A stretch of DNA of 64,000 bases from Actinomycetota bacterium (GCA_046730475.1 JBKPIY010000005.1:5187-69186), one strand, 5' to 3'. Shown: positions 13,764-47,398, numbered from the stretch's first letter. Numbers and translations are program-made. Notes: generated by a model from the sequence alone, not told the origin.

Positions 13764-13801
13764 TCCGGGTAACGACGGGGGTCGTAAGAAAGACAAGACC
13801 C

Positions 13802-22551: not shown

Positions 22552-22603
22552 CTCCGGCAAGTGGCGCTAAAGGCCGTGGGCCGTGCGCCCGATAGGGCAT
22601 GTG

Positions 22604-23767: not shown

Positions 23768-23832
23768 GCGGGGCCAGGCAGGGGACCGATGGGGCCGGGC
23801 AGGGGACCGATCAGAGGCCGGAGGGCCACGCG

Positions 23833-25173: not shown

Positions 25174-25255
25174 TCGGGGCGGGATCCCCGGTTTCAGGTA
25201 ATTGACCACCGCGCGCTCAAGCTTGAGGACGATAGCGCCGAGCTAGAAGGTAGAG

Positions 25256-25861: not shown

Positions 25862-25864
25862 CCG

Positions 25865-27697: not shown

Positions 27698-27767
27698 TCG
27701 CGGTCCGGACGGCTCGATCGAGATTCGGACTCAAGGATTTTGCCCTGGCGCCGATGGACGCTGCGAG

Positions 27768-28943: not shown

Positions 28944-28976
28944 CGACGATCGAGAGCGAGAGGCAAGGACGCTGAA

Positions 28977-30071: not shown

Positions 30072-30086
30072 CGGAGGGCGGATCGG

Positions 30087-31322: not shown

Positions 31323-31648
31323 CGGGGCCGGCCTCGCCCGTCGCCCCACCCCCGGTCCGGCCTGACGGGGACTGCCGCTGCCCGTCCGGCAAGGTGATCT
31401 CGGAAGCCGGGAGCGGACCATGCGCAGCGCCGAAAGGGTTGGCCCCGGCGCGGCAGACGCTCCCGCTCCAGGCACGAAGCGCCGAGCTATGCCGCCCGCC
31501 GTTCGGGTTAATTCGCGCCCGCCTGCGCCAGTAACGAAAATCGATGTAAACGCAGGTTCTACCTCGACAACCTAATCACTTCTTCGGGACTTGCTAAAGC
31601 GCGGGCGGGCGGCGCCGATACCCACGGTGTAAAGGAAACAGGCCAGGG

Positions 31649-31740
31649 CCCTGGTGCGAAGGGCAAACCCGTCGCGAGGCGGGGGCGCAAAGCCGACGGG
31701 GCTCCACCTCACGGGGGAGCCGGCCGGGCTGCCACCGGGG
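31649..31740 (+). promoter_or_regulatory. candidate c-di-GMP-I (GEMM-I) riboswitch aptamer in the pilA 5' leader
   Basis: P1 stem: CCCUGGUG (31649-56) pairs with CACCGGGG (31733-40). GGGCAAACC at 31661-69. Hairpin CCCGUC-GCGA-GGCGGG (31668-83) with a GNRA loop. GCGCAAAGCC at 31685-94. Second hairpin GGCUCC...GGAGCC (31700-05 / 31716-21). Order and spacing match the Vc2-type aptamer as I recall it. Confidence 0.75.
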
Positions 31741-31807
31741 TCAGACCGACACCGACTGGGAGCGAAGGGGCTCTGGCGCGACAGCAAAGGTTCACAAGGA
31801 GGTACCT

Positions 31808-32263
31808 ATGCTGGTGAAGCTCCGCCAGAGGATGGCCCAGGAGGAATCGGGCTTCACGCTCGTTGAGCTCCTGGTCGTGATGTTGATTCTCGGCCTGCTG
31901 GCCGCGATCGCGATCCCGTCCTTCTTCAACCAGAGGGACAAGGCCAAGGATGCGGATGCCAAGTCGTCGGTGCGCACTGCGCAGACGGCGATCGAGACAT
32001 ACGCTACCGATCACGACGGTAGGTACACGGGCGCAACCGCAGCGCGGCTGAAGGACATCGAGGTGACGCTGAACGACCCGCCCGGCAACACGCTTGCCGT
32101 TAACGTGCCGAGTCCCAGCGCTTACACGGTTACGGTTACATCGAAGACCGGTACCAATTTCTCGATCACCCGTGACAGCACCGGAGCGCTCACGTTTGGG
32201 TGTACTGCCCCTGATAAGGGCGGCTGCCCAGGCCCCGCCGGTGACTGGAGTGGTAACGGCTAG
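31808..32263 (+). CDS. pilA: major type IV pilin (type IVa-like)
   Basis: AAGGAGG lies 5 nt upstream of the ATG. Leader MLVKLRQRMAQEESG, then FTLVELLVVMLILGLLAAIAIPSFF (G/F cleavage site, Glu+5). C-terminal Cys pair CTAPDKGGC (disulfide loop). Confidence 0.9.
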   Translation: MLVKLRQRMAQEESGFTLVELLVVMLILGLLAAIAIPSFFNQRDKAKDADAKSSVRTAQTAIETYATDHDGRYTGATAARLKDIEVTLNDPPGNTLAVNVPSPSAYTVTVTSKTGTNFSITRDSTGALTFGCTAPDKGGCPGPAGDWSGNG

Positions 32264-32279
32264 GACCGTAGGGCGCACA

Positions 32280-32342
32280 GCGGCCTGAGGCCGCACACGG
32301 TGGACTCGAAGGGCGGCGTCTGACCCGGGGTCGCCCTTCGAG
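32280..32342 (+). terminator. two stem-loops directly after pilA (putative partial terminator/attenuator)
   Basis: GCGGCC-TGA-GGCCGC (32280-32294). CTCGAAGGGCG (32305-15) pairs with CGCCCTTCGAG (32332-42). No U-tract. Confidence 0.4.
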
Positions 32343-32364
32343 GCCCACCGACCCGAGAAATCAC

Positions 32365-32964
32365 TTGACCACTGACGACAACATTCGCCGCCGCCGCGAC
32401 CTTCGCTCCGCGAGCGGCTTCACCCTGGTGGAGCTGCTGGTGACGCTGCTGATCTTCGCGGCGATAATGGCGGCCGTCGTCCCGATCATCGTCACCGCGG
32501 TCCGCTCCGAGCCGCGGACGAGCAAGCGGGCGTACGACATCCAGCGCGGGCGGGCCGCGCTGGAGCGCATCATCCGCGACCTTCGCTCCGGCTACAGAAT
32601 CGACACCGCGCTCTCCACCCAGCTCGCCGTCAACACCTACACGCGCAAGGTCACCTGCGGGAGCGACGCCATCCTTGCTCCCGACCAGCCCGCCACCGCC
32701 TGCCGCGTCACCTACTCCTGCAGCGACGCCCAGACCCTGACCCGCTCCGAGAACCCCGTCACGGGCAGCGGCGGCAGCTCCGCCATCCTCGTCCGGGGCC
32801 TCTCCTGCACCAACGTCTTCTTCAATCGGGACGGCTCTCCCCTCGGCTCGACCGCCAGCCCCGACTACGTGCACATCAGGCTGATGTTCCCAGCCCAGGA
32901 CGGCAACGAGGAGATCACGCTCGAGGACGGCGTCGATTTCCGCAATATCACCCCGGGGGTGTGA
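32365..32964 (+). CDS. minor pilin / pseudopilin (prepilin-type N-terminal cleavage/methylation domain)
   Basis: RSASG/FTLVELLVTLLIFAAIMAAVVPIIV, TTG start. Confidence 0.8.
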   Translation: MTTDDNIRRRRDLRSASGFTLVELLVTLLIFAAIMAAVVPIIVTAVRSEPRTSKRAYDIQRGRAALERIIRDLRSGYRIDTALSTQLAVNTYTRKVTCGSDAILAPDQPATACRVTYSCSDAQTLTRSENPVTGSGGSSAILVRGLSCTNVFFNRDGSPLGSTASPDYVHIRLMFPAQDGNEEITLEDGVDFRNITPGV

Positions 32965-34379
32965 CCATGCATGAGGCGCTGACCCGCAGACGAACCCGGC
33001 TCGCGGCGCTCGGTCGAGACCAGTCGGGGATGACCATCGTCGAGCTCCTGGTCACGGCCATCCTCCTGGTGCTGGGCGCGCTCGCGATCTTCCAGGCGCT
33101 GGAGGCGGCGAGCCGCAACGGCTACCGCTCCGAGCAGAGGCAGGTAGCCCTGGACCGCGCTCAGCGCGAGCTCGAGGCGATCCGGAGCCTGCCCTACAAG
33201 GAAGTGGCGATGACCGCCGTCCCGACGGCGAGCGCCGATCAGAACGACCCCCGTAGTCGCGTCAGCGGCACCACCTTCGACCTCAACCGCAGCGGCGGCG
33301 CTCCGGCCCAGATGGTCGTGAACGGCGGCGCCCTCGACACGGGCGGCACCGTCACCGGTGGCGTGGTGGCCCCCGGGCCAGAACACTTTACGAGCGGCGA
33401 CGTCGGCGGCAACATCTACCGCTTCGTCGTCTGGCGAGACGACCCCAGCTGCCCCGCGGCGCTCTGCCCCGGCACCCAGGACCTGAAGAGGGTCGTGGTG
33501 GCGGTTCTGCTCGACAAGGTCGCGATCTCGGGCCAGCACCCCTACGTCGAGATCGCCTCCGACTTCTACAACCCCGACAGGAGCGATCTCAGCAACCCCG
33601 GACCCCCGAACCCGGGCAAGGGCGGCAAGACCACCGTGCAGCAATTCTGGCTCTCCGACACCCCCTGCTCGTCCGGCTCGACGAGTCCCGCCCGGGTGGC
33701 GCCGACCGCAGATCACCTGCTTCACAACACCCTCGGGGACTGCTCGGCCGGCCTCCGGAACGGGGGAACGGCGGGCGCCCCGGATGCGCTCCTGCCGCTT
33801 GCGCCGCCGGACACCGGTGCGCTCACCTACGACTACTCCAGCGACGCCTACCTGGAGCCGACTCCGGCGTACGCCGACCGCGGCGTGCAGATCCTGCGCC
33901 AGGACGCGAACGGCTGCTCGTACGCTCCGCAGGGGGCGACCCCGGAGGCGAAGATCCACCGCTGGGTGTCGCGGCCGGTTCCGGTGGCCTTCACGATGAC
34001 CGGCACCGCCACGCTCGAGGTCTTCTCGAAGACGATCAACAACGCCCGCCACCGCGGCAGGATGTGCGCGTATGCGTTCGTCCGCGGTCTGGTTGGTGGG
34101 CAGATCGTTGACACACCGGTGGTGAATCTCTCCACCTTGCAGCCTTACTTCACCTACTCACCGCCGGGCAACTCGGACTGGCCGCGTAACAAGTGGGACA
34201 AGATCACCATGACGATGAGATTCGACCCGAGGACGCTGTCGGTCGGTGACCGGATCGGAGTGGCGATCAGCGTCGATCGCTCGGACACCCCGGGCGACGC
34301 CCTCCAGTTCCTCTACGACCACTCCCAGTTCCCGTCGCGGTTCGAGGTCGGCACCACAACGCCAATCGGCAACGGCTAA
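32961..34379 (+). CDS. large minor pilin / pseudopilin (prepilin-type N-terminus, 472 aa)
   Basis: RDQSG/MTIVELLVTAILLVLGALAIFQALEA. GTGA overlap with the upstream minor pilin gene. Confidence 0.75.
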   Translation: MTMHEALTRRRTRLAALGRDQSGMTIVELLVTAILLVLGALAIFQALEAASRNGYRSEQRQVALDRAQRELEAIRSLPYKEVAMTAVPTASADQNDPRSRVSGTTFDLNRSGGAPAQMVVNGGALDTGGTVTGGVVAPGPEHFTSGDVGGNIYRFVVWRDDPSCPAALCPGTQDLKRVVVAVLLDKVAISGQHPYVEIASDFYNPDRSDLSNPGPPNPGKGGKTTVQQFWLSDTPCSSGSTSPARVAPTADHLLHNTLGDCSAGLRNGGTAGAPDALLPLAPPDTGALTYDYSSDAYLEPTPAYADRGVQILRQDANGCSYAPQGATPEAKIHRWVSRPVPVAFTMTGTATLEVFSKTINNARHRGRMCAYAFVRGLVGGQIVDTPVVNLSTLQPYFTYSPPGNSDWPRNKWDKITMTMRFDPRTLSVGDRIGVAISVDRSDTPGDALQFLYDHSQFPSRFEVGTTTPIGNG

Positions 34380-35140
34380 TGGCACCCCTCGCGGTGGCGG
34401 CCGGCGTCGGCGGACTGATCGCCGGCAGCTTCGTCAGCGTGGTCGCCCATCGCGTTCCGCGCGGGCTCTCGATAGTCGCCCCGCGCTCCCAATGTCCCTC
34501 CTGCGGCTCCCAGATCGCGGCGTACGACAACGTCCCGGTGCTCTCGTGGCTCGCCCTGCGGGGCCGCTGCCGGCGGTGTGGGCATGGGATCCCGGCACGC
34601 TATCCGCTCCTGGAGCTGGGCCTCGGCGCGCTGTTCGCCGCCACCGCCTTGGTCCTGCGCTCTGATCCCTTGCAGGTCGCACTCGGGCTGGTGCTGGTGG
34701 CGACCCTGGCGGCGGTGACCCTGACCGACTTGGAACGGCGGGTGATCCCGAACCGGATCCTGCTCGTGGCCGCGGCGATCGGGCTCGCGGTGATGGCGGC
34801 CGCCGATCCGGGCATCGTCCCGGGCCGCCTCGCCTGGGCGGCGGCGGCGGGAGGGGGGCTGCTGATCGTGGCGCTCGTCTACCCCCGCGGCATGGGGATG
34901 GGCGACGTCAAGCTGACCGCCTTGATGGGGCTCTACCTTGGGCGGGCGGTGGCGCCCGCGATCTTGGTGGCGCTGGCGGCGGGCGCGATCGTCGGCATCG
35001 CGCTGATGGTCCGCGACGGCGCCGGGGCCCGCAAGCGGACGGTGCCGTTCGGGCCGTTCCTCGCCCTCGGGGGAGTGGTCGGACTGCTGGTCGGCGGGTC
35101 GCTCGTCGACTGGTACTTGACCGGCTTCGCTCCCCAGTAA
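34379..35140 (+). CDS. pilD: prepilin peptidase (A24 family)
   Basis: PRSQCPSCGSQIAAYDNVPVLSWLALRGRCRRCGHGIPARYPLLEL (Zn-ribbon N-domain) and the catalytic Asp context GMGMGDVKL. One-nt overlap (TAATG) with the upstream gene. Confidence 0.9.
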   Translation: MAPLAVAAGVGGLIAGSFVSVVAHRVPRGLSIVAPRSQCPSCGSQIAAYDNVPVLSWLALRGRCRRCGHGIPARYPLLELGLGALFAATALVLRSDPLQVALGLVLVATLAAVTLTDLERRVIPNRILLVAAAIGLAVMAAADPGIVPGRLAWAAAAGGGLLIVALVYPRGMGMGDVKLTALMGLYLGRAVAPAILVALAAGAIVGIALMVRDGAGARKRTVPFGPFLALGGVVGLLVGGSLVDWYLTGFAPQ

Positions 35141-35215
35141 TCGGTAACTACGCCTTTTGGGGTAAAGCAGCCGCCGCCGCCCGCCGATGGAAGCCCGGTA
35201 AGGAGATCCGAGGGA

Positions 35216-36343
35216 ATGCTGACTAGAACAAGATCCGGCCTGGTGGGCCTCGACTTCGGCGCGGACAGCGTCGCCGCCGTTGCCGTCACCTCGAACGGCT
35301 CCCCCAAGGTGGAGCGGACGGCGATCGCCCCGCTCGAGCCGGGGCTGGTCAACGAGGGCGACGTGGTGGACGTCGCCGGGCTGGCGAGCGCCGTGCGGCG
35401 GCTGTTCGACGAGAACCGACTGTCCAAGAACGTGCGCCTCGGGGTGGCCAACCAGCGGGTCACGATGCGCACCATCCGCCTCCCTTTGATCGAGGACGAC
35501 GGCGAGCTCGACACGGCGATCCGGTTCAAGGCCCAGGACGCGATCCCGATGCCGCTCGAGAACGCCGTGCTCGACTACCAGGTGGTCGGGCGGGGCAAGG
35601 GCGAAGCCGGCGAGCGCTGGATGGACGTCGCCGCCGTTGCCGGCCGCCGCGACATGCTCTTGACCGCCGTCGAGACGCTGCGTGAGGCGGGGCTGCGCCC
35701 GGTGGGGATCGATCTCTCCGCCTTCGGGATGCTCCGCGCCCTCGCACCTTCATCGGACGGCGAGGACGCGGCGGCCCCGGCGACCCTGTACTGCCACTTC
35801 GGCGACGTCACCAACCTGGCCGTCGCCCGGGGGGCGAGCTGCCTGTTCACGCGGGTGGCCGCGTTCGGCTACGAGGACATCGTCGGGCGGCTCGCCGAGC
35901 GCTGCGCGATCCCGGTCGGGGACGCGCGCGCGGTGCTGCGCGAGGCGCGATTCAAGCCGGCCCCCGTCCAGCCCGCCTCGCCCGCGAGCGACCAGCCTTC
36001 GGAGTGGATCGCCGACCCCGGCCGGCGGCCCCGGTCGGAAGAGGGCGAGCCGGGCGAAAGCGAGGAGCGGCGGATCGCTGGGGAGCTGTTGGGGGAGGGC
36101 GCCGCCAAGCTCGCCGATGAGATCAGGCATTCGCTGGAGGCCTATGGCGCCCAGGAGGGCGCGGCGGCCGTCGATCGGCTCGTGCTCTGCGGCCCCGGCA
36201 GCACCGTTCTTGGCCTCGAGGAGCGCCTCGAGCAATCGCTCGGCTATGCGGTCGAGTCGAGGTTTCCCGCTGCCCTCGCCAGCCTCCCCGACGCCGAGGC
36301 GGCTCGAGCCCTGGTTCCCTACGGCTTGGCCCTGGAGGAGTAG
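35216..36343 (+). CDS. pilM: type IV pilus assembly protein PilM (actin-like ATPase fold)
   Basis: LVGLDFGADSVAAVAV..., AIPMPLENAVLDYQVVG, GIDLSAFGMLRAL, LVLCGPGS. AAGGAG is upstream. Confidence 0.85.
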   Translation: MLTRTRSGLVGLDFGADSVAAVAVTSNGSPKVERTAIAPLEPGLVNEGDVVDVAGLASAVRRLFDENRLSKNVRLGVANQRVTMRTIRLPLIEDDGELDTAIRFKAQDAIPMPLENAVLDYQVVGRGKGEAGERWMDVAAVAGRRDMLLTAVETLREAGLRPVGIDLSAFGMLRALAPSSDGEDAAAPATLYCHFGDVTNLAVARGASCLFTRVAAFGYEDIVGRLAERCAIPVGDARAVLREARFKPAPVQPASPASDQPSEWIADPGRRPRSEEGEPGESEERRIAGELLGEGAAKLADEIRHSLEAYGAQEGAAAVDRLVLCGPGSTVLGLEERLEQSLGYAVESRFPAALASLPDAEAARALVPYGLALEE

Positions 36344-36346
36344 GCG

Positions 36347-37078
36347 GTGCGTCCGGTCAACCTGATCCCAGGCGACCTGCGGCGCGGCCCGCGGCCCCGC
36401 GGGCGAAGCGCCTCGACCGGCTACCTGGTCATCGGGGTGATGGCGGCGCTGCTGGTCGGCGTGATCGTGCTCGTGACGACCAACAACCAGATCTCGGACC
36501 GCAAGTCCGACATCGCCCGGCTCAAGGTCGAGGAGCAGCAGGCGACGGAGCGAGCGCAGCAGCTCAGCGCCTTCACCGACTTCCGCAGCGCCGAGGAGCG
36601 CCGCACCGCGACGGTGGCCAGCCTCGCCCAGAGCCGGTTCGACTGGGAGCGGGTGATGAGGGAGCTGTCGCTGGTGCTGCCGGACAACGTTTGGCTGGTC
36701 AACCTGACGGGCACCGTCACTCCCGACGTGACCCTTGACGGCGGCGCGAGCCTTCCCACGCGGACCAGCGTCGCGGGGCCGGCCCTCGAGATCATCGGCT
36801 GCACCACCTCGCAGGACAACGTGGCCCGGTTCGTCTCGGCGCTCGAGGACATCGACGGCGCGACCAGGGTCGGGGTCCAGTCCTCGGAGCTGGGCGACTC
36901 CACCAGCCCCGAGGGAACGAGCGGCGGCGGCGGCAGCACGAGCCAGGACTGCCGCACCCGGAACTTCATCTATCAGTTCGAGATCGTGGTTGCCTTCGAC
37001 AAGGCGCCGACGCCTTCGGTCGCGACCGTGACCACCCCGGTCCCCGCCGCGACCACGACAACCGGGACGGGAGGGTGA
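36347..37078 (+). CDS. pilN: PilN-like fimbrial assembly protein
   Basis: MRPVNLIPGDL N-terminus (PilM-binding type), a single TM, coiled-coil, position immediately after pilM. Confidence 0.75.
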   Translation: MRPVNLIPGDLRRGPRPRGRSASTGYLVIGVMAALLVGVIVLVTTNNQISDRKSDIARLKVEEQQATERAQQLSAFTDFRSAEERRTATVASLAQSRFDWERVMRELSLVLPDNVWLVNLTGTVTPDVTLDGGASLPTRTSVAGPALEIIGCTTSQDNVARFVSALEDIDGATRVGVQSSELGDSTSPEGTSGGGGSTSQDCRTRNFIYQFEIVVAFDKAPTPSVATVTTPVPAATTTTGTGG

Positions 37079-37079
37079 G

Positions 37080-37898
37080 ATGAGGCGGAACGACCGGATC
37101 CTCGTCCTCGCAGTCGGCCTGGTCGCCGTCGCGGCGCTCGCCTGGTTCCTGGTGCTTGCCCCCAAGCGCAAGGAGTCGGCGAGGCTCGGCGACGAGAAGC
37201 AGAGCGTGCAGGCCGCGATCGCCAAGCAGGAGCAGATCGCTGCCTACGGCCAGCAGGCGCGCCGGACGTTCCCCCACACCTATCAGGAGCTGGTGGTGCT
37301 GGGTAAGGCCGTTCCGGCCGGCGACGACACCTCCGCGATGCTGGTGGAGCTGAGCTCGATCTCGCACCAGGCGGACGTGAAGTTCGGGGGGATCGCGCTT
37401 TCGGAGACCGGCACCTCCGAGACAGCCGCCCCGACTTCGGCGCCGTCAGCCGGCACCAGCGGGCAGACGAGCAGCGCCGCCGGCGCGACCACGGCAAGCC
37501 TGAGCGGGTCGGCCCCGGCCACCGAAGCGGCCGCCGCCAGCCTCCCGATCGGGGCCACGGTGGGGCCGGCCGGTCTTCCGGTGCAGCCCTATCAGCTCCA
37601 TTTCATCGGTAGCTTCTTCAAGGTCGCCGACTTCATCGCCGGCCTCGACGATCTGGTCGGCACCAGGGGCCAGCGCGTGGTCGTCGACGGCAGGCTGATG
37701 ACAATCGATGGCTTCGCGCTGAGCGCCGACCAGAAGCGGGGCTTCCCCACCCTGGACGCCCGCTTCACGATGACCGCGTACGTGACCCCCGCGGAGGAGG
37801 GCTTGTTCTTGGGCGCGAGTCCCTCGGCTCCCTCGACGACCGGGACGACCCAGGTCAGCGCGACCGTGCCCAGCTCAACCTCTGGAGGGACGCCATGA
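37080..37898 (+). CDS. pilO: PilO-like pilus assembly protein
   Basis: Single N-terminal TM, coiled-coil, then LVVLGKAVPAGDDTSAMLVELSSISHQADVKFGGIAL (PilO-like core). Follows pilN by 1 nt. Confidence 0.65.
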   Translation: MRRNDRILVLAVGLVAVAALAWFLVLAPKRKESARLGDEKQSVQAAIAKQEQIAAYGQQARRTFPHTYQELVVLGKAVPAGDDTSAMLVELSSISHQADVKFGGIALSETGTSETAAPTSAPSAGTSGQTSSAAGATTASLSGSAPATEAAAASLPIGATVGPAGLPVQPYQLHFIGSFFKVADFIAGLDDLVGTRGQRVVVDGRLMTIDGFALSADQKRGFPTLDARFTMTAYVTPAEEGLFLGASPSAPSTTGTTQVSATVPSSTSGGTP

Positions 37899-38677
37899 GA
37901 AGGCCGAGCTTCCCAACCGACAAGGCGCCGCAGGTCGTCAGGGACCTGATCAGTGACCTCCGCGACCGCCACCTGCTGCCGGTCGTGGTCGGGCTCGCGC
38001 TCGCGATCGTGGCCGTGCCGGTGATCCTCTCCAACTCGGGCTCGTCGGGGAGCCCGGCGCCGCAGTCGCACGCTGCCGTCACTGAGCCGGCCAAGAGCGC
38101 GAAACACCTGACGGTCACGGCCGAGGACCCCGGGCTGCGCAACTACCGCAAGCGGCTCGACCGACTCAGTTCCAAGGACCCGTTCAAGCAGCAGTACCAA
38201 ACCCCCATCACCAAGGCGGCGGAGCTCGGCACCAGCCTCTCGACCGCGGTCGGCGGCGGGTCGACCGGCACCTCGGTCACCCCGGGGCCCGTGCCCACCG
38301 GGACCGGCGGTGGTACCCCCGTCGGGAAGACCAAGCCGGCCAAGCCTGAAAAGGTGGTCAGCTACACGATCAACGTCTTCACCGGCCCGACCGGGAGTCT
38401 GAAGCGGCGCACCGGGGTCGAGCCGCTGACCCCGCTTCCGAGCGCATTCAGGCCGGTGGCGCTCTTCCTCGACGCCACCTCCGACGGCCGCAAGGCCCTG
38501 TTCGTGATCTCCTCGCAGGCGGCCCTGCATCGGACCGATGGGAGCTGCGTGATGAAGGATGACGGCGCCTGTCAGGTGCTGGCGCTGCGGCCCGGCGGGG
38601 TTGCGGGCTTCACCTACGCCGGCGACAGCAAGCTCTACAAGATCAAGCTGGTCAAGATCACGCCCGTCACCGGGTAG
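37895..38677 (+). CDS. membrane-anchored hypothetical protein, possible PilP-like component
   Basis: ATGA overlap with pilO and GGAGGGA upstream. One TM, Gly/Thr/Pro linker, KDPF motif, C-terminal beta-rich domain ending YKIKLVKI. Confidence 0.4.
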   Translation: MRRPSFPTDKAPQVVRDLISDLRDRHLLPVVVGLALAIVAVPVILSNSGSSGSPAPQSHAAVTEPAKSAKHLTVTAEDPGLRNYRKRLDRLSSKDPFKQQYQTPITKAAELGTSLSTAVGGGSTGTSVTPGPVPTGTGGGTPVGKTKPAKPEKVVSYTINVFTGPTGSLKRRTGVEPLTPLPSAFRPVALFLDATSDGRKALFVISSQAALHRTDGSCVMKDDGACQVLALRPGGVAGFTYAGDSKLYKIKLVKITPVTG

Positions 38678-39236: not shown

Positions 39237-40922
39237 GTGACGATGCTGGAGAGCACCACCGAGCGGCTCGAGGGGGCGTTATGCCGCCTCGCGCTCGAGG
39301 CCGGCGACCTCCTCGACGATCTCCTCGCCCAGGGGGCCGAGCTTCCCTTCGAGATCGAGCCCACCGACGAGGGGCCCCTGCCGATGTACCAGTACGCGCC
39401 CCTCACGGGCGCCTTCATCCGCGCCCACGTGGCCGAGCTTCGCCGCCTGGAGGTTTTCCTCGAGGTGCGGGAGCTGGCGGGTGAGGAGGCGGCGGTCGGC
39501 TTCCTCGTCGGCCTCTGGGACGGACGCAGCGAGTTCAACCTGATCGAGGACCACCTGCGAGGTGCGATCGACGCGGTCCTCGCGAGCGTGGCCGCAAGCG
39601 GAGGCGAGGGGAGCGCCCCCGGCGAGGTGATCGTGCCACTGATCGGATTTCACATGCCCGTCGACGAGATCGGGCTGGACGGCGTCCGGATCGTCCGTGC
39701 CGACGCGGTCGAGGACGCGCCGGCGGAGGCGATCGAGTGCTCCCGGCCGGGACGAAAGGGAAAGCCGGGCTTCCTCGCGTGCGTGAGGTGCGCGGGCGCC
39801 GCCGTCGCACCCGGCGCGGCCGTCGCGGACGATCTCCGCCGGGCCCTCCGCACGATGCGGCTGTTCCGGCCCGGCGCCGTCGGCCTGGCCGCCCAAGGCT
39901 GGGTCCGCCGCCCCGACGGCTGGGAGCGGTTCGGCACCGGGACCAACCGGCCGCGCCACGGCGGCTACCGGCTCACCGGCACCGAGGCCGCCGATCTCGA
40001 GTCCTTCGCCACCACCCTCGCCGATCGCGGCGCCCGGATGCCCGCCTTCGAGTGGGCGGCCTCGCGATTCGACCTCGGCGCCGAGCGGCCCTCGCTGATC
40101 GAGGCGCTGAGCGACTACCTGCTCGCCCTCCGGGGGCTGCTCGAGGGCGGCGGCGCCGCCCGTGCCGCGCTCTCGGCGCGCGCGGCCGCCCTGGTCGCCG
40201 CCGAGATGGACGGGCGCGAGCGCGGCCGCCTCTGCGTGGAGCGGGCGCTGTCGCTCGAGCGCAAGCTGATGGGCGGGTCCCGCTTCGTCCCGGCGGCCGC
40301 CTGGCAGCCCCTGGACGTGATCGCGGATCTGGAGGAGACCCTGCGGCGAATCCTGCGGGCGATGGCCGCCGGGGAGCTGGGAGGGGATCTGCGCGCCACC
40401 GCGGATGAGATCCTGCTCTCCGACGGCCTCGCCGCCGCCGCCGGGACCGCCGGCGCCGTCGGCACCGGCCAGGCGACGCTTGGGGAGACCGCCGAGTGGA
40501 GCATCCCCGACCCGGTCGCAGAGGAGATCGGGGTGGCGCCCGGAGCCGACGCCGCCACCGAGGCCGACGAGGGCGAGGAGGAGACGACCGAGGCCGCCGC
40601 AGCCGATCAGGCGACCACCAGGATCGTTGTCGACGACGTCGAACTACCGAGGCTGATGGCCGACGAGATCGACGATCGGCGCCCCCTGGAGGGGGGCGCC
40701 GGCCTCGGGGATGCCGACTGGTTCAGCGCCGCCGACGGCGGGCTGGAGTGGCCGGCGTTCGCGAGGCCGCGGCGCGCCCGCGAGCGGGAGCGGCCATCCG
40801 GCGAGGCGCGCCGGGAGACCTCGGACCGGGTCCGCTACCTCTTCCCGGTCCCGGACGCCACCGACTGGGACGTCGGTGAGCTCACCTACGAGCCCGGACG
40901 CTCGCGCGCGATAGACCGGTAG
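39237..40922 (+). CDS. hypothetical protein, 561 aa, with acidic low-complexity C-terminal third
   Basis: Consistent GC3 bias over the whole ORF. No recognisable domain. Confidence 0.6.
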   Translation: MTMLESTTERLEGALCRLALEAGDLLDDLLAQGAELPFEIEPTDEGPLPMYQYAPLTGAFIRAHVAELRRLEVFLEVRELAGEEAAVGFLVGLWDGRSEFNLIEDHLRGAIDAVLASVAASGGEGSAPGEVIVPLIGFHMPVDEIGLDGVRIVRADAVEDAPAEAIECSRPGRKGKPGFLACVRCAGAAVAPGAAVADDLRRALRTMRLFRPGAVGLAAQGWVRRPDGWERFGTGTNRPRHGGYRLTGTEAADLESFATTLADRGARMPAFEWAASRFDLGAERPSLIEALSDYLLALRGLLEGGGAARAALSARAAALVAAEMDGRERGRLCVERALSLERKLMGGSRFVPAAAWQPLDVIADLEETLRRILRAMAAGELGGDLRATADEILLSDGLAAAAGTAGAVGTGQATLGETAEWSIPDPVAEEIGVAPGADAATEADEGEEETTEAAAADQATTRIVVDDVELPRLMADEIDDRRPLEGGAGLGDADWFSAADGGLEWPAFARPRRARERERPSGEARRETSDRVRYLFPVPDATDWDVGELTYEPGRSRAIDR

Positions 40923-40929
40923 ACCCGCG

Positions 40930-42081
40930 TCAGGCTGCCGGGACTCGACGCTCCCCGGTGGTCATCGCCTCCCGCTCCTCGGTAGTGGCGAACAGGAACC
41001 GGTCGATCTCGAGCAGCCCCTCGAGGTCGTGGACGTCCTCGTCGAGATAGGGGACCCGGATCACCCGCCGGGCCTGGAGCTCGCGGGCGAGGTGGTCGAC
41101 GTTGCGGGCGTCGCGGGCGGCGAGAGCCTGGTAGTCGGCGAAGTTGGAGGCGACCCGCGTGGCGAGGTCGTGATCGAGGAGGTGGCGGAGTGCGTCGCCC
41201 GCCTCCGCCCCGGCGCCGTTTCCGTACTGGACCTTGTTGACGATCACCCCCCCGACGGGGAGCTTCGCCTCGACCAGCTTGCGGTGGAAGTACACGGCCT
41301 CCTCGATCGGCTCGCCTTGGGGCCCGCAGACGACCACGAAGGTGGTCTCCGGGTCGCCGAGGAGCTCGGACACCCGTCGGGCGCGCTCCCGGAACCCGTC
41401 CACCATCCCGCTGAACGCGCTCAGGAACTCGCCGACGTCGGCGAGGAGGTCGAAGCCCACCACCCGCTTGAGGATCCCGAACATCATCGAGGTCCCGCGC
41501 CCGACCATCCGGGTGGCCAGCCCCGTCGGCTTCATGAAGATCTGGAGCGAGCGGCCCTCGATGAACTGGGTGAGCCGCTTGGGCGCGTCGAGGAAATCGA
41601 GGGCATCGCGGGATGGCGGGGTATCGAGGACGAGATGGTCGTAGCGGCCCTCCTGGTGGATCTCGTACAGCTTCTCCATCGCCATGTACTCCTGGGACCC
41701 GGCGAGGGCGTTGGAGAGCTGGCGGTAGATCCGGTTGGCGAGGATCCGGTCCCGGGTCTCGGCGTCGGGTGCGTGCTTTCTGACCAGCTCGTCGAAGGTG
41801 GCCTTGGCGTCGAGCATCATCGCCCACAGCTCGCCGCGCATCTCGATCCCGGCGCGCCGGAAGAGCTGCGGGTCGACCCGGCGGGGCTCGTTCTCGAGCT
41901 CGCGCAGCCCAAGCGAGTCGGCGAGCCGCTTGGCGGGGTCGATCGTCAGCACCGCCACCTTCTCGCCGCGCGCCGCGAGGCCGGCGGCGATCGCGGCCGA
42001 GGTGGTGGTCTTTCCGACCCCGCCGGACCCGGCGCAGATCGTCACCCGCTTCCCTGCCAGGATTTCGGCGACCCCCGGCAT
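40930..42081 (-). CDS. ArsA/Get3-like ATPase, second of a pair (size and order like mycobacterial Rv3680/BagB)
   Basis: GKRVTICAGSGGVGKTTTSAAIAAGLAARGEKVAVLTIDPAKRLADSLG. ATGA overlap with the upstream paralog. 383 aa. Confidence 0.8.
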   Translation of the reverse strand: MPGVAEILAGKRVTICAGSGGVGKTTTSAAIAAGLAARGEKVAVLTIDPAKRLADSLGLRELENEPRRVDPQLFRRAGIEMRGELWAMMLDAKATFDELVRKHAPDAETRDRILANRIYRQLSNALAGSQEYMAMEKLYEIHQEGRYDHLVLDTPPSRDALDFLDAPKRLTQFIEGRSLQIFMKPTGLATRMVGRGTSMMFGILKRVVGFDLLADVGEFLSAFSGMVDGFRERARRVSELLGDPETTFVVVCGPQGEPIEEAVYFHRKLVEAKLPVGGVIVNKVQYGNGAGAEAGDALRHLLDHDLATRVASNFADYQALAARDARNVDHLARELQARRVIRVPYLDEDVHDLEGLLEIDRFLFATTEEREAMTTGERRVPAA

Positions 42082-43058
42082 CAGTTGAGCGCCGCCGCGA
42101 GGCGCTCGAGATCGGGCACCTCGAGCTGGGGCTTGAAGACGAAGGGGAGGGTCTTGACGGGGGAGGAGACCCGCCGGCGAAGGCGCTGGAGCTGGGCCCG
42201 CTGGGCCTGGGCACGGCGTTGCTCCGAGAGGGCGGCGCCGATCGCCGCGCGGGCCGGCCCCTCGGCGCTTTCCAACGCCTTTTCGAGCTCGTCGACGTCG
42301 CGCCGATCGAACCGCTCCGGGTACATCGCGTTCATGTAGACGCGGTCCACCGCGATCCCGATCTCTCCGACGAGCTGGCGCTCGAGCGAAGCCGACTCGT
42401 TCACCGGCATCTCCTCCGGCAGCGACACGATCGCGACCCCGGTGGAGTCGTGGTCGGTGATGAAGCGGTCGAGCGCCTGGGCCTGGGAGTGGATCGGCCC
42501 GACCCGGGCGATTCCGGCGAACGTGCGGGGTGTCTGGAGGAAGCCGACGCCGTGGCCGGTGGCTGGGGCGTCGACGACGACGAGGTCGTAGCCCTGACCC
42601 TTCTTCACCCTCCGGTTGAGCTGGGCGAGCTCCCAGATCTTCCCGATCGTGACCAGCTCCTTGAGCCCGGGAGTGGCGGCGGCGAGGTAGTTGAAGATCC
42701 GGGAGCGAACCAGCAGGTCGCGCATTGCCCGCACCTTGAGCTGGAGAAGCAGGTACTCGCGCATCGACTCGTCGGGATCGACCGAGATCGCCCACAGGTT
42801 GTCGGCCACCTCGACCTCGTGGAACCCGACCTTCGCCCGCCTGAACACCCGCGAGGCATTCTCCTGGGAGGAGATCTCGCAGATGATCGTCCGCTTTCCC
42901 CTCGCGGCCGCGGCGAGCCCGAGGGCGATCGAGATCGTCGACTTTCCCACCCCGCCCTTGCCGGTGACGAACACGAGCCGCTTGTCGAGAAGCTCAGGCA
43001 CCCGAACGCGCCATTCTTGCGGACAAGGGTTGCCCGGGCCCTGGCGCTTGAATCTCAT
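42081..43058 (-). CDS. ArsA/Get3-like ATPase, first of a pair (like Rv3679/BagA)
   Basis: LVFVTGKGGVGKSTISIALGLAAAARGKRTIICEISSQ (deviant Walker A), DLVVVDAPATGHG. 325 aa from the ATG at 43058. Confidence 0.8.
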   Translation of the reverse strand: MRFKRQGPGNPCPQEWRVRVPELLDKRLVFVTGKGGVGKSTISIALGLAAAARGKRTIICEISSQENASRVFRRAKVGFHEVEVADNLWAISVDPDESMREYLLLQLKVRAMRDLLVRSRIFNYLAAATPGLKELVTIGKIWELAQLNRRVKKGQGYDLVVVDAPATGHGVGFLQTPRTFAGIARVGPIHSQAQALDRFITDHDSTGVAIVSLPEEMPVNESASLERQLVGEIGIAVDRVYMNAMYPERFDRRDVDELEKALESAEGPARAAIGAALSEQRRAQAQRAQLQRLRRRVSSPVKTLPFVFKPQLEVPDLERLAAALN

Positions 43059-43097
43059 GGGGAGGAAACACGGCGCCGCCTCCGAATTAGGCCGCTG

Positions 43098-44015
43098 ATG
43101 CCGAGTTTCCGTCGCAAAGCTGCCGCTTCGCGCGCTTCCGACAGCGGGCGCCTGAGCCCCGACGAGGTGGTCGGGCCCAGGCGTGACGCCGACGGGGCGA
43201 AGCCGAAGGACGAGAAGGAGACGAACATCCCCGCCAGGAAGGCGCCCAAGCGCGCCGGGCCGGCGCAGGTGATCGCGTTCGCGAACCAGAAGGGCGGGGT
43301 GGCGAAGACCACCACCGCCCTCAACCTCGCGGTCGCCTTCAAGGAGTCCGGCCACCTGGTGCTCGCCGTGGACATGGACCCGCAGGGGAACCTGACGATG
43401 AGCCAGGGCGTCGACCCGGACAAGGTCGAGAAGAGCATGTTCGACGTCCTCGTCCACCGCCTGCCGATCACCGAGGTGATCGTCGAGCGGGAGATCGACG
43501 TTGCCGTGGCGTCAATCGATCTCGCCGGGGCCGAGATCGCAATGGCGGCCCAGATCGGGCGGGAGCGCTCCCTCCAGAAGGCGCTCGCCGAGGTCCGCGA
43601 GGACTACGACTACATCTGCATCGACACCCCGCCCAGCCTCGGCCTGCTCACCGTCAACGCTCTTACCGCCGCTGACAAGGTCATTGTTCCGGTGCAGTGC
43701 GAGTACCTGTCGATGCGTGGCCTGCTGCAGCTCCAGAACACGCTCCAGATGATCCGCGAGAACCTGAATCCCAAGGTTGAGATCGAGGGGATCCTGCCGA
43801 CGATGCTCGACTCCCGCACCGTCCACGCCAAGGAGGCCGTCGAGATCCTCGAGGAGAACTTCGGGGAGCTCGTCTTCCAGTCCCGGATCCGGAAGGCGAT
43901 CAAGTTCGCGGAGGCGCCCGTGCGCGGCACCTCGGTGCTCAAGTACGACCCGAAGAGCAAGGCGGCGGCCTCCTACCGCGACCTCGCCAAGGAGGTCCTG
44001 ACGCATGGCTCGTAA
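43098..44015 (+). CDS. ParA/Soj/MinD-family ATPase with about 55-aa basic N-terminal extension
   Basis: VIAFANQKGGVAKTTTALNLA (KGGxxK[ST] deviant Walker A), LAVDMDPQGNLT, YDYICIDTPPSLG. The start is uncertain: ATG 43098, or GTG 43269 at the latest. Confidence 0.85.
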   Translation: MPSFRRKAAASRASDSGRLSPDEVVGPRRDADGAKPKDEKETNIPARKAPKRAGPAQVIAFANQKGGVAKTTTALNLAVAFKESGHLVLAVDMDPQGNLTMSQGVDPDKVEKSMFDVLVHRLPITEVIVEREIDVAVASIDLAGAEIAMAAQIGRERSLQKALAEVREDYDYICIDTPPSLGLLTVNALTAADKVIVPVQCEYLSMRGLLQLQNTLQMIRENLNPKVEIEGILPTMLDSRTVHAKEAVEILEENFGELVFQSRIRKAIKFAEAPVRGTSVLKYDPKSKAAASYRDLAKEVLTHGS

Positions 44016-45744
44016 GCGGGCGAGCATGCGCGAGGGCCCCCTCGCCGATCTCTTCCGCTCCACCGAGGGCTCGCTGGCCGATCAGGAGGTGCGGGTGACC
44101 GCCGCCAAGCGCAACTCCGCATCCCGCGGCGATGTCGCCGTCGCCGAGGCCCAGCCCGAGGTCGAGGCCACCCGGACGAGGGCCCGAGAAGCCGAGGCCG
44201 AGGTGTTGCAGCCCGAGGTCGAGGTTCCACAGCCCGAGCCCGTCCCCGAGCCCACGCCCGAGCCGATGCCCGAGCCGATGCCCGAGCCGATCCCGGAGCC
44301 CACCCCGGACCCGCAGCCCGAGCCCCCCGACCCGGATCCGGGCCAGCCCGAGCCCGTGATCGAGCGTCACCGGACCGGCTCCCACGAGGTCGTCGAGCGG
44401 CCGAGCCCCAACCACGAGGGCCTCGAAGGGCTGATGGGCCGCGGTGGGCGGGCCGGGGAGCGCCCCGCCTTCGGTCGCGACGAGCCGGACATGGCGCGCA
44501 ACACGACCAACACGACCGTCCCCCGCACCCACCGAGCCGTGCTCCGGGTCGTCGGTGTCGGGGGCGCCGGGGTGAACGCGGTCAACCGGATGATCGAGGC
44601 CGAGGTGCCGGGGGTCGAGTTCGTCGCCATCAACACCGATCTTCAGTCGCTTCAGACGTCGGCCGCCGACACCTGCCTGCAGATCGGCGCCGATCTCACC
44701 CGCGGGCTCGGCTCCGGCTCGGATCCGCGAGTCGGATACCGCGCCGCCTTCGACGAGCAGGACAGGATCCGGAGCATCCTCAAGGGCTCTGACATGGTCT
44801 ACATCGCGGCGGGAGCGGGCGGCGGCACCGGGACCGGTGCCGGCCCCGTGGTCGCGAGGCTCGCCCGCGACGTCGGCGCCCTCACGGTGGCCGCGGTGAC
44901 CAAGCCGTTCAGCTTCGAGGGGGCGCGCCGCGCCGCCCAGGCCGAGGAGGGAATCGCCGCCCTCGGCGCCGAGGTCGACACCTTGATCGTCGTCCCGAAC
45001 GAGCGCCTGCTCCAGATCCTCGAGCGGCGGACCTCGATCCAGGACGCCTTCCGGGTCGCCGACGACGTCCTGCGCCAGGCGGTCCAGGGGATCTCCGACC
45101 TGGTGATGCTCCCCGGCCTGATCAACCTGGACTTCGCCGACGTTCGCACCACGATGGTGGAGGCTGGCGACGCGATCCTCGGGATCGGCATGGGCGTCGG
45201 CGAGCACCGCGCAGTGCTCGCCGCCGAGAAGGCAGTCTCCTCGCCGCTCTTGGACTGCTCGGTCGAAGGGGCCCAGTCGCTGCTCCTCTCGATCACCGGC
45301 GGCGGCGACCTGTCGCTGGTCGAGGCGAGCGAGGCGGCGGAGATCGTCCGGGAGGCCGCTCATCCCGACGCCAACATCATCTTCGGCGCCGGCATCGACG
45401 AGGACATGCGCGGCGAGGTCTGGGTGACGGTGATCGCCACCCGGTTCGAGTCCGCCTACGCGCACCGGCATCGGCGTGATCGCGACCACCGTCCGCGGGA
45501 GCCGCGAGGCGGACGCGGCCCGGACGCCGACCCGACCGACAAACGGGCCGCGTGGGAGCGCCGCTGGGCGGGCGAGGAGCTCTACGACGCCGACCGCCAC
45601 CAGGACCGCGGCCGCCAGGGCGACCGTGCCGTCAGAGATCTTCGGGCCGAGTCCCCGGAGCGCGACCGACCCCCGCTCCAGCCGGGCACCGGCCTCGGGG
45701 GCGGGCTGGTCGTGGACGCTCCCGAGTTCATCCCCGGTCACTAG
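44005..45744 (+). CDS. ftsZ: cell division GTPase FtsZ with about 160-aa N-terminal extension
   Basis: Canonical core: VVGVGGAGVNAVNRMI, GGGTGTGAGPVVA, NLDFADV. C-terminal peptide DAPEFIP. The ATG at 44005 is preceded by AAGGAGG (43989-95, 9-nt spacer) and overlaps parA-like by 11 nt. GC3 stays high through the extension. Confidence 0.9.
   Translation: MARKRASMREGPLADLFRSTEGSLADQEVRVTAAKRNSASRGDVAVAEAQPEVEATRTRAREAEAEVLQPEVEVPQPEPVPEPTPEPMPEPMPEPIPEPTPDPQPEPPDPDPGQPEPVIERHRTGSHEVVERPSPNHEGLEGLMGRGGRAGERPAFGRDEPDMARNTTNTTVPRTHRAVLRVVGVGGAGVNAVNRMIEAEVPGVEFVAINTDLQSLQTSAADTCLQIGADLTRGLGSGSDPRVGYRAAFDEQDRIRSILKGSDMVYIAAGAGGGTGTGAGPVVARLARDVGALTVAAVTKPFSFEGARRAAQAEEGIAALGAEVDTLIVVPNERLLQILERRTSIQDAFRVADDVLRQAVQGISDLVMLPGLINLDFADVRTTMVEAGDAILGIGMGVGEHRAVLAAEKAVSSPLLDCSVEGAQSLLLSITGGGDLSLVEASEAAEIVREAAHPDANIIFGAGIDEDMRGEVWVTVIATRFESAYAHRHRRDRDHRPREPRGGRGPDADPTDKRAAWERRWAGEELYDADRHQDRGRQGDRAVRDLRAESPERDRPPLQPGTGLGGGLVVDAPEFIPGH
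44230..44355 (+). repeat. degenerate 6-nt/12-nt tandem repeat (CCCGAGCCN) encoding a Pro-Glu-Pro linker in FtsZ
   Basis: cagcccgagcccgtccccgagcccacgcccgagccgatgcccgagccgatgcccgagccgatcccggagccc... translates to QPEPVPEPTPEPMPEPMPEPIPEPTPDPQPEPPDPDPGQPEP. Confidence 0.85.
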
Positions 45745-45811
45745 ATCGCCGCCGGCTCCGGTCCGGACCGAACTGCGTCGCGGCCGCCCGGCGACCTAGG
45801 CTGCCGGGGAG

Positions 45812-47398
45812 ATGGTCAGCGCGAAGGGAGTCGTAGCCGCCGGGCATCCGGTGACCGCTGAGGCCGGAGGGGATGTCCTACGGAAGGGGGGAAACGCCGT
45901 CGACGCCGCGGTCGCCGCGGTGCTCACCTCGTTCGTCACCGAGAGTCCGCTGACCGGCTTCGGGGCGGGCGGGTTCATGCTCGTCCACGACCCCGGTAGG
46001 GAGGACGTCCTGATCGACTTCTTCGTCGCCGCGGGCGGCGCCGACGGGGTCGAGCGTGGTGCCGAGCTCGTTCCGGTCCCGGTCTACTTCGACGAGACGC
46101 CGCAGACCTTCAACGTCGGAGCGCCCTCGTGCGGGGTGCCCGGCAACCCCGCCGGCCTGGAGCGGGCGGTAGAGCGCTTCGGGTCGATGCCGATCTCGGA
46201 TCTGATCGTCGACGGGGTGCGGCTGGCGCGCGAGGGGGTCGAGGTGAACGCCCAGCAGGCCTACATCTTCGAGATCCTGACGCCGATCCTCACCTCGACG
46301 CCCGAGTCGGCCGCCCTGTACGCCCCCGAGGGGCGGATGCCGCGCCAGGGAGACACCTTCCGCTATCCCGAGATGGCGGACGCGCTCGAGCGCTTCGCTG
46401 CGGAGGGGGCGGAGCCCTTCTACACCGGCGAGGTCGGGCGGGTCGTATGCGAGTGGGTTCGAGAGCGAGGCGGGACGCTCGGGATCGACGACATGGGCGA
46501 CTACGCGCCGATCGAGCGCGAGCCGATCCGGATCCCGTTCCGCGGCGCCGAGGTGCTCACCAACCCGCCCGCCTCCTCGGGCGGGATCCTGATCGCTTTC
46601 GCTCTCGGGCTCCTGGAGCGGCTGGGCGAGCGGAGCGGGGTCGAGGAGGTGGTGGCGGCGATGGAGGCGGCGAACGCCGCCAGGGGCGAGGCGTTCCACG
46701 AGGGGCTCCATCAGGAGGGCTACGCGGCTCGCTTCCTCGACCCGGCGCGGTTCGACCGGGTCGCCGAGCGGATCCGCGGCGGCGGCTGGGCCGGGGGAGC
46801 CGGTGGAGCCGGGGGGCCCGGCGACGCAGCCGACCCCGGCGACAGATTGGGGTCGACCACCCACATCGCGGCCCTCGACGCGAACGGGATGTGCGCCTCG
46901 GTCACCTGCTCGAACGGGACCTGCTCGGGGATGCTGGTGCCCGGCACCGGGGTGCACCTGAACAACATGCTCGGCGAGGAGGATCTGAACCCTCACGGCT
47001 TCCACCTGATCCCGCCCGGCCGCCGGGTGAGCTCGATGATGTCGCCGAGCGCCGTCCTCGATCGCGGGGAGATCGAGGTCGGCCTCGGCAGCGCCGGCTC
47101 CAACCGGATCCGCTCGGCGATCCTCCAGGTGATCCTCAGGGTGATCGAGGACGGCATGGAGGCCGGGGAGGCGGTGCGAGCGGGCCGGCTCCACTTCGAG
47201 GCGGGGATCGTCCAGGCCGAGCCCGATGTCGACCAAGACGGCCTCGTCCGGCTCGAACGGCGCGGCGTCCCGGTGGTCCGATGGCGCCGGCAGAACCTCT
47301 ACTTCGGAGGCTGCCAGGCGGTTGTCCGCGACCCCGACTCCGGAGAGCTCTCGGGCGGCGGCGACCCCCGCCGGGGCGGCGCCGTGACCCTCGCCTAG
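45812..47398 (+). CDS. ggt: gamma-glutamyltransferase family protein
   Basis: KGVVAAGHPVTAEAGGDVLRKGGNAVDAAVAA and the autoprocessing/nucleophile context LGSTTHIAALD. Confidence 0.9.
   Translation: MVSAKGVVAAGHPVTAEAGGDVLRKGGNAVDAAVAAVLTSFVTESPLTGFGAGGFMLVHDPGREDVLIDFFVAAGGADGVERGAELVPVPVYFDETPQTFNVGAPSCGVPGNPAGLERAVERFGSMPISDLIVDGVRLAREGVEVNAQQAYIFEILTPILTSTPESAALYAPEGRMPRQGDTFRYPEMADALERFAAEGAEPFYTGEVGRVVCEWVRERGGTLGIDDMGDYAPIEREPIRIPFRGAEVLTNPPASSGGILIAFALGLLERLGERSGVEEVVAAMEAANAARGEAFHEGLHQEGYAARFLDPARFDRVAERIRGGGWAGGAGGAGGPGDAADPGDRLGSTTHIAALDANGMCASVTCSNGTCSGMLVPGTGVHLNNMLGEEDLNPHGFHLIPPGRRVSSMMSPSAVLDRGEIEVGLGSAGSNRIRSAILQVILRVIEDGMEAGEAVRAGRLHFEAGIVQAEPDVDQDGLVRLERRGVPVVRWRRQNLYFGGCQAVVRDPDSGELSGGGDPRRGGAVTLA

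Follow-up and report, generated by a model that had tools for sequence, protein, structure and literature searches.

How the division site is chosen in bacteria that have neither a Min system nor nucleoid occlusion is an open question, in Actinobacteria in particular. Here we ask it of a gene pair in a 64,000-nt stretch of an Actinomycetota genome (GCA_046730475.1, JBKPIY010000005.1:5187-69186; hereafter the window, with positions counted from its first letter), where a gene for a ParA-like ATPase overlaps an ftsZ whose product begins with a long N-terminal extension: does that extension make FtsZ a direct partner of the ATPase encoded beside it? An earlier look at this DNA by itself (the sequence-only reading) had suggested as much. 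Our comparison of the locus with its relatives leads us to propose, at a probability of about 0.55, that the neighbouring ParA would have FtsZ as its cargo and would also be activated by it, through a conserved peptide of 22 residues at the N-terminus of FtsZ that we call the head.

A conserved head peptide opens a long form of FtsZ

The two genes lie on the plus strand of the window. The parA-like gene, encoding an ATPase of the deviant-Walker-A type, occupies 43098-44015 (305 aa from a putative ATG start at 43098 to the TAA at 44013-44015, with the core at residues 55-305), and the long form of ftsZ extends over 44005-45744 (579 aa, from ATG 44005 to TAG 45742-45744), as supported by Pfam Tubulin and FtsZ_C matches, by TIGR00065 and by the profile of G+C content at third codon positions (GC3). 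The overlap of 11 nt between them (44005-44015), already pointed out in the sequence-only reading, suggests translational coupling, and the Shine-Dalgarno sequence AAGGAGG of ftsZ was indeed found at 43989-43995, within the last parA codons (A-K-E-V-L) and 9 nt upstream of the ATG. Read from this ATG, FtsZ begins with the head (residues 1-22, 44005-44070; MARKRASMREGPLADLFRSTEG), which is basic in its N-terminal part and includes a short amphipathic helix (L13, L16, F17). It is followed by a disordered linker (residues 23-136, 44071-44412), a second conserved short motif that is specific to the order (residues 137-161, 44413-44487), the canonical GTPase core with the C-terminal domain (residues ~173-489, 44521-45471) and a C-terminal peptide, D571-A-P-E-F-I-P577 (45715-45735), the usual docking site of FtsZ partners.

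The start at 44005, favoured in the sequence-only reading, agrees with the conservation of the locus. From 44005 on, the frame of ftsZ has a GC3 of 0.83-0.97, equal to that of the core, which matches the high values described there, and the predicted extension of about 160 extra residues is present as a region (residues 1-162) without any Pfam domain. The internal ATG at 44491 would, as was said, give a conventional FtsZ N-terminus, though conservation argues against its use as a start: the corresponding Met163 is Thr in 45 of the 52 relatives of our 52-sequence alignment. Moreover, the open frame is kept in about 70 complete ftsZ genes although the length of the linker changes. Short FtsZ models of 388-390 aa, made by gene callers, stand beside full forms of 537-579 aa in the same protein clusters (P0001, P0106), so that automatic annotation sometimes cuts these genes short and hides the head extension.

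To quantify how widely the head is shared, we used the 120 closest FtsZ homologues (526-605 aa, 59-81% identical), which were retrieved by similarity to full-length FtsZ and hence were not selected for the head; those that carry a name are Solirubrobacterales FtsZ. All of them except one start M-A-R-(K)-K-R-A-S-M-R-E-G-P-L-A-D-L-F-R-S-T-[DE]-E-S, and the sole head-less homologue is a fragment truncated at its N-terminus. The presence of the head in 119 of 120 homologues not chosen for it is far beyond chance.

In the 52-sequence alignment, R5, A6, S7, M8, R9, G11, P12, L13, A14, L16 and F17 are invariant. Across 83 genomes the head codons other than Met use 2-6 synonymous codons each, while 12 of 16 residues never change; as the codons vary synonymously and the residues stay fixed, the constraint acts on the protein. 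This conservation continues well beyond the 11-29 nt shared with parA. Indeed, the head (residues 1-22) is conserved to the same degree as the GTP-binding motifs, and the linker is free to vary. Five of its residues are Arg or Lys (R3, K4, R5, R9 and R18), and the hydrophobic moment of residues 12-21 is 0.53. AlphaFold2 (AF2), run with the 52-sequence alignment, placed helices at residues 4-8 and 14-21 in an otherwise disordered extension.

We then searched 1.84 billion representative proteins with a profile of the head. The search gave 1002 matches at E <= 0.001, of which the best 150 were listed, and no protein family other than FtsZ was apparent as a carrier of the head among these 150. Twenty of them, either long or with an internal head, are all N-terminal fragments of FtsZ, frameshifted FtsZ or ParA-FtsZ misfusions; in the other 130 the head stands at the N-terminus of short pieces, which were taken to be FtsZ fragments cut by contig ends. 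Against the sequences of the PDB the head found only chance matches, to calponin-homology proteins (E 0.04-0.1). The stretch REGPLADLF (R-E-G-P-L-A-[DE]-L-F, residues 10-17) resembles the ScpA N-terminal FEGPFDLLL. The head may have its evolutionary origin hinted at here, but this is a resemblance only, and we do not use it as support. A scpA gene of Gaiellales (L056:18533-19303), 8.5 kb downstream, is preceded by a lgt-like gene and not by parA.

The linker was described in the sequence-only reading as acidic and rich in Pro and Glu, and its composition agrees (Pro 23%, Glu 18%, net charge -15 over residues 23-136). Between relatives it varies in sequence and length, with poor column conservation, AF2 confidence (predicted local distance difference test, pLDDT) mostly below 50, and a spacing from head to core of 94-198 aa across loci with an intact gene. 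Just before the core, the second motif reads H137-E-G-L-x-R-L-M-G-G ... R153-P-A-F-G-R-D-E-P161, with invariant columns in 52 Solirubrobacterales sequences; Gaiellales have P-x-P-E-x-A-P-R-L instead at the same place. It is probably another docking site. Further short helices were predicted by AF2 at residues 53-66 and 138-143 of the extension. The GTPase domain was modelled with confidence. Pfam Tubulin (PF00091) covers residues 181-339 (3.7e-43), FtsZ_C (PF12327) residues 388-481 (1.1e-29), and the score for the NCBIfam FtsZ equivalog TIGR00065, 400.5 bits, exceeds its cut-off of 295.2. Neither GGGTGTG nor the T7 loop NLDFADV varies in the 52 homologues, in keeping with the canonical FtsZ that had been recognised. 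Residues 501-579 have pLDDT below 50 and end, in the window, in DAPEFIPGH. The C-terminal peptide noted earlier is conserved in both orders, as D-[AV]-P-E-F-x-P in Solirubrobacterales (P573, E574 and P577 invariant, F575 nearly so) and E-[LP]-P-S-F-L in Gaiellales. The N-terminal layout mirrors the C-terminus of FtsZ, with invariant head, variable linker, core, C-terminal linker and C-terminal peptide. An invariant head on a disordered linker, together with a C-terminal peptide on a linker of its own, therefore gives a peptide on a tether at both ends of FtsZ.

parA and ftsZ are linked across two orders

A scan with the head profile, using one genome per species, showed that at least 565 species genomes encode the head. 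The best 80 of these belong to Solirubrobacterales, Gaiellales/Gaiellaceae or unclassified Thermoleophilia/Actinomycetota; one short contig among them is labelled Acidimicrobiia and carries a Gaiellales-type head. For the gene order we used 83 loci, namely the window and 82 species genomes, from two orders. A ParA homologue ends within 120 nt of the head in all 83 loci, and the head opens an FtsZ gene in every locus with an intact gene. Conservation of the head and of the adjacent parA in related taxa, which the sequence-only reading had put forward as a check, thus holds across both orders (83/83 loci in each case).

The overlap of parA and ftsZ in relatives is 4-32 nt. Loci of Solirubrobacterales type mostly overlap by 8, 11 or 14 nt, whereas an overlap of 29 nt occurs in 54 loci, of which almost all are of Gaiellales type. 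A motif of the AAGGAGG or GAGG type lies 6-9 nt upstream of the ftsZ start, within the last ParA codons, in almost all of the 83 loci. The ParA or FtsZ frame is split in a few metagenome-assembled genomes from long reads, and these splits look like assembly frameshifts. The neighbours differ by order: pilus genes, HxlR and a BagAB-like pair in Solirubrobacterales, and the Lhr helicase in Gaiellales. The exceptions shared by both are ggt downstream and one uncharacterised protein upstream, here called U561.

The absence of a division gene context, also claimed in the sequence-only reading, was found among the genes of the window that we scanned with Pfam (46 open reading frames (ORFs) supported by GC3, with some ten shorter or overlapping ORFs left out): no dcw, ftsQ, ftsA, sepF, min or parB genes were found in these 46 ORFs, and ggt follows ftsZ. 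No dcw genes were found within 10 kb of ftsZ in four further loci either (L001, L002, L060 and L067).

Judged from gene order, parA and ftsZ form a two-gene, apparently translationally coupled module across the class Thermoleophilia. The observation made on the window is confirmed in all that it says of the sequence, and by this comparison is far more general than one window. Those of the proposed checks that can be made with sequences alone were all favourable to it.

The neighbouring ATPase is of the ParA/Soj type

The ATPase matched Pfam AAA_31 (3e-60, 203.5 bits) and CbiA (1e-25). Its best matches in the PDB are ParA of Myxococcus xanthus (8RAY, 202 bits) and a ParA-like protein of Mycobacterium smegmatis (4PFS, 201 bits), followed by Soj of Thermus thermophilus (1WCV, 166 bits) and of Helicobacter pylori (6IUB, 165 bits). 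The deviant Walker A, KGGVAKTT (residues 64-71), Motif 2, VDMDPQGN, and Walker B, IDTPPS, are all present; the last two align with D58, D60, N64 and the Walker B of M. xanthus ParA and are invariant among the orthologues. In the 77 loci where parA is unbroken, the deviant Walker A is found before ftsZ. The protein reached the cut-off of no NCBIfam equivalog, with 121.6 against 180 for NF041546 (ParA partition) and 53.8 against 212.9 for TIGR01968 (minD_bact), and its match to MipZ (PF09140) was confined to the P-loop half (profile positions 2-136 of 262, 49.9 bits) and did not extend over the full length. It ends ...LAKEVLTHGS right after the last core helix, without a MinD-type C-terminal membrane helix. 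We also looked for a ParB N-terminal motif or an in-frame GERRxRA box, and found none in about 1.4 Mb of related loci and the window.

Among the best 120 ParA homologues listed, leaving out the self-hit and two without an identity value, there were 117, which are Solirubrobacterales orthologues 90-94% identical to the window protein. Within Solirubrobacterales, identity is 89.5% for the ParA core (43260-44012) and 82.3% for the FtsZ core (44521-45471); between orders (against Gaiellales) the corresponding values are 70.6% and 58.6%. That a ParA-like protein is more conserved than the FtsZ GTPase core is unusual. Before Walker A, residues 1-54 (43098-43259) form a basic, low-complexity extension. 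Its length differs widely among relatives, with open frames of 33 to over 150 residues.

In M. xanthus ParA, the pocket that receives the ParB peptide is lined by V116, L150, L152, L155, L187 and L192, and R13 of ParB lies near Y81, E82, D110 and E117 (Schnabel et al.). The pocket equivalents in the window ParA are I147, L181, L183, V186, M218 and L223, four of them invariant in 11 aligned orthologues. At the Arg site the equivalents are F, D, D and A, so that three of four are kept while Ala stands in place of E117, and the DNA-contact residue R238 corresponds to K269. The majority of these positions do not vary among the orthologues.

A possible adaptor-free positioning system

Several partners of ParA-type ATPases, namely ParB, PomX, MinE, ParG, McdB and TlpT, carry activating peptides of a common class, which are N-terminal, about 20 residues long and rich in Arg/Lys, and are followed by an unstructured Pro-rich region (PMC7993993). 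The FtsZ head has these same features, as it stands at the extreme N-terminus and comprises about 20 conserved residues with five Arg/Lys before a flexible Pro-rich region. The motif of M. xanthus ParB consists of L11, R13, L15, L18 and I19, and activation of ParA by ParB peptides is more than 10-fold better when these are paired (PMC12462528). The residues available in the head are M8, R9, L13, L16 and F17, with an L-x-x-L-[I/F] face identical to that of ParB and a different spacing of the Arg.

On this basis we propose the following mechanism. The head would fold into a short helix (L13, L16, F17, plus M8 and R9) and dock between the two subunits of the ATP-bound ParA dimer, in the hydrophobic pocket that in chromosomal ParA takes up the ParB N-terminal motif. 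As an ATP dimer, ParA would sit on the nucleoid, since a basic residue is kept at the DNA-contact position (K269). FtsZ filaments, displaying many heads, would be far stronger than monomers in binding ParA on the nucleoid and in switching it off; given the more than 10-fold advantage of paired ParB peptides, it is the filaments that would be the effective activator and cargo. A gradient or flux of ParA would in this way set the position of Z-ring material with respect to the nucleoid, as it does for PomXYZ clusters, carboxysomes and ParB-parS, and this without an adaptor. The net effect could be either a recruitment to mid-nucleoid like that of PomXYZ or an exclusion resembling nucleoid occlusion, and translational coupling would keep ParA and FtsZ co-expressed.

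Of the direct ParA-FtsZ positioning module suggested in the sequence-only reading, the conserved linkage, a head that fits the activator class and the retained pocket were found, while the binding of FtsZ to ParA and the stimulation of its ATPase, as well as the nucleoid association, are things that we infer. The suggestion is thus plausible, and stronger than it was on the window by itself. A wider claim, to which we give somewhat less than even odds, is that such an adaptor-free ParA system places the division ring throughout Thermoleophilia: FtsZ filaments would be the cargo, each subunit would bear a ParB-/PomX-like activating peptide, and the Z-ring would position itself on a gradient of nucleoid-bound ParA, as the primary site-selection system of the whole class, possibly together with U561.

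Comparison with known systems shows where this candidate system would stand. Close to it in design is PomXYZ of M. xanthus, in which the nucleoid-bound, ParA-type PomZ sets the site of the Z-ring and the cargo is multivalent; PomX activates through a conserved, positively charged 22-residue N-terminal peptide that precedes an unstructured Ala/Pro-rich region (PMC7993993). There, however, the peptide is on a separate scaffold and FtsZ is recruited secondarily, whereas in Thermoleophilia the peptide is part of FtsZ, and the sequences are unrelated; no PomX or PomY homologue was recognised near parA-ftsZ. With ParABS the locus shares a ParA of the Soj/ParA type with kept pocket residues, and a head that follows the same logic of basic residues and L-x-x-L-[I/F] (PMC12462528). 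It differs in that the gene downstream is ftsZ and not parB (83/83), in the spacing R9-x3-L13 of the head compared with R13-x-L15 of ParB, in the replacement of E117 by Ala, and in the missed ParA_partition cut-off. The replacement at the Arg site and the altered spacing would fit, we infer, a private pair of ParA and partner that avoids cross-talk.

MipZ of Caulobacter crescentus, likewise an ATPase of the ParA/MinD family, makes use of the nucleoid and has FtsZ as its direct target (PMC11407121), but it binds the end of the FtsZ polymer, is positioned by ParB and needs no FtsZ peptide. From the same phylum, PldP of Corynebacterium and Rv1708/MSMEG_3743 of Mycobacterium are ParA-like proteins encoded outside parAB and implicated in septum placement, and Rv1708 binds both ParB and ScpA, the product of its downstream gene (PMC10482377, PMC3989709); in those cases the gene downstream is scpA, not ftsZ, and FtsZ is without a head. 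Finally, FtsZ of heterocyst-forming cyanobacteria has an N-terminal extension conserved within that clade, which annotation often misses and on which normal polymerisation and division depend (PMC6175996). That extension, unlike the present one, has about 60 residues of unrelated sequence, is not encoded beside a ParA gene and does not present an invariant terminal peptide at the end of a long disordered tether. For the divisome, a review of ParA/MinD cargos from 2024 names only MinD, MipZ and PomZ. In the searchable literature, which is thin on subscription journals, we found neither an FtsZ with an N-terminal peptide of the ParA-partner type nor a parA-ftsZ operon of Thermoleophilia. We rate as the new element a ParA/MinD-type positioning system whose activator peptide would be fused to the cargo.

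Alternative explanations

Several points weigh against FtsZ as the activating partner of ParA. The Arg stands at another distance from the L-x-x-L-F helix than in ParB, and the ParA is without the otherwise invariant E117, so the analogy with ParB may not transfer to the head and its neighbour. The likeness of the two motifs amounts to about five residues. The ParB of a possible parAB operon elsewhere in the genome might be the partner of this ParA, and U561 could be the real adaptor. Adjacency of the genes, taken alone, is also what one would expect if the ParA, like MipZ, made contact with the core of FtsZ and not with the head. Moreover, an activator peptide on every FtsZ monomer might collapse the ParA gradient unless avidity favours filaments.

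The most probable of the alternatives, although we regard it as rather unlikely, is that the extension is real and its head binds something other than the neighbouring ParA. That ParA would then reach FtsZ by a different surface, in the manner of MipZ, or would only be expressed together with it. In favour of this, a conserved N-terminal peptide of cyanobacterial FtsZ affects polymerisation and the interaction with SepF (PMC6175996), and neither MipZ nor PomZ needs such a peptide for its contact with FtsZ (PMC11407121). The extension also has order-specific motifs just before the core, which must bind something, and a third conserved neighbour, U561, exists. Yet the activator hallmarks of the head, which is the sole element conserved across both orders, would then be left unexplained, as would the overlap of parA and ftsZ in 83/83 genomes and the retained peptide pocket of ParA.

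Less probable still, and in our view distinctly unlikely, is a head that tethers FtsZ directly to membrane or DNA by its basic patch and amphipathic helix, as an anchor independent of ParA in organisms that lack FtsA. Amphipathic helices, N-terminal or C-terminal, do tether some FtsZs directly, according to reports on Mycoplasma (bioRxiv 10.1101/2023.08.29.555414) and Odinarchaeota (PMC12583498), and both the moment of residues 12-21 and the basic R3, K4, R5 and R9 would suit such a role. The helix has, however, three large hydrophobic residues only and a net charge of -1, with acidic residues after it. The membrane-targeting sequences of E. coli MinD and FtsA carry +3 to +4. In addition, the invariant polar or small residues S7, E10, G11, P12 and T20 are typical of a specific protein interface and not of a lipid-binding helix. 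From charge and hydrophobicity, a membrane-anchoring head was judged unlikely.

The last explanation, a mis-called start with translation from ATG 44491 and an upstream frame that is untranslated or constrained only by the parA overlap and the Shine-Dalgarno sequence, can appeal to the conventional N-terminus and to the short gene models, and is effectively refuted by the Thr at position 163, the coding-like GC3, the open frame that outlasts shifts in linker length, and a protein-level conservation of the head, with synonymous variation, that runs well past the overlap.

Neighbouring genes and the rest of the window

The same-strand upstream neighbour U561 (39237-40922, plus strand) is a hypothetical protein of 561 aa. 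It is present in 20 of the 20 Solirubrobacterales-type loci with enough upstream sequence, and a counterpart of 403-407 aa occurs in about 47 loci of Gaiellales (e.g., L067:7438-8661 and L060:7710-8921); the two families are homologous (hhalign probability 95.5%, E 1.4e-8). A conserved C-terminal motif, V-R-Y-L-F-P-V-P-D-A-T-D-W, characterises the protein. No Pfam or NCBIfam family matched it, Foldseek gave no match in the PDB at E <= 0.001, and its AF2 model is poor (mean pLDDT 56). Considering its conserved position, U561 could be a third component of the parA-ftsZ module.

On the other side, ggt (gamma-glutamyltranspeptidase; 45812-47398, plus strand; Pfam 2e-100) is the conserved downstream neighbour, found after ftsZ also in L001, L002, L060 and L067, sometimes with one gene between. 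We know of no link of ggt to division.

Two overlapping genes for ArsA/Get3-like ATPases lie on the minus strand between U561 and parA, at 40930-42096 (BagB-like, 347 bits against a cut-off of 521) and 42081-43037 (BagA-like, 154 bits against 400), the models being mycobacterial. This BagAB-like pair is divergent from parA, with about 60 nt between the start codons; it is present in Solirubrobacterales loci and not in the Gaiellales loci examined. A scan of 42800-46000 for promoters and terminators gave nothing exceeding shuffled expectation.

Further upstream, a large type IV pilus gene cluster occupies 22583-38677 on the plus strand (T2SSE x3, T2SSF, pilin, prepilin peptidase, PilM/PilN). 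Its pilin has an N-methylation motif, and several uncharacterised genes are interspersed; a type IV pilus cluster is also found upstream of parA-ftsZ in L001 and L002. At 12603-14815 (plus strand), overlapping ORFs encode FGE-sulfatase plus DinB_2 and Methyltransf_33 domains, which we take to be the domain pair of the ergothioneine enzymes EgtB and EgtD. Metabolic genes are also among the scanned ORFs of the window.

Meaning for division in Thermoleophilia

If FtsZ is indeed both the cargo and the activator of its neighbouring ParA, no more would be left of ParA-type positioning than its bare essentials, an ATPase and a cargo bearing its own activator peptide, with the central division protein, FtsZ, as that cargo. 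This FtsZ would also be the first to use an N-terminal tail, and not the C-terminal peptide, as the docking site of a partner. What is predicted concerns one peptide of 22 residues and one defined pocket and is therefore directly checkable, and the pair would offer a simple two-protein system for reconstituting the ParA-driven positioning of a dynamic polymer.

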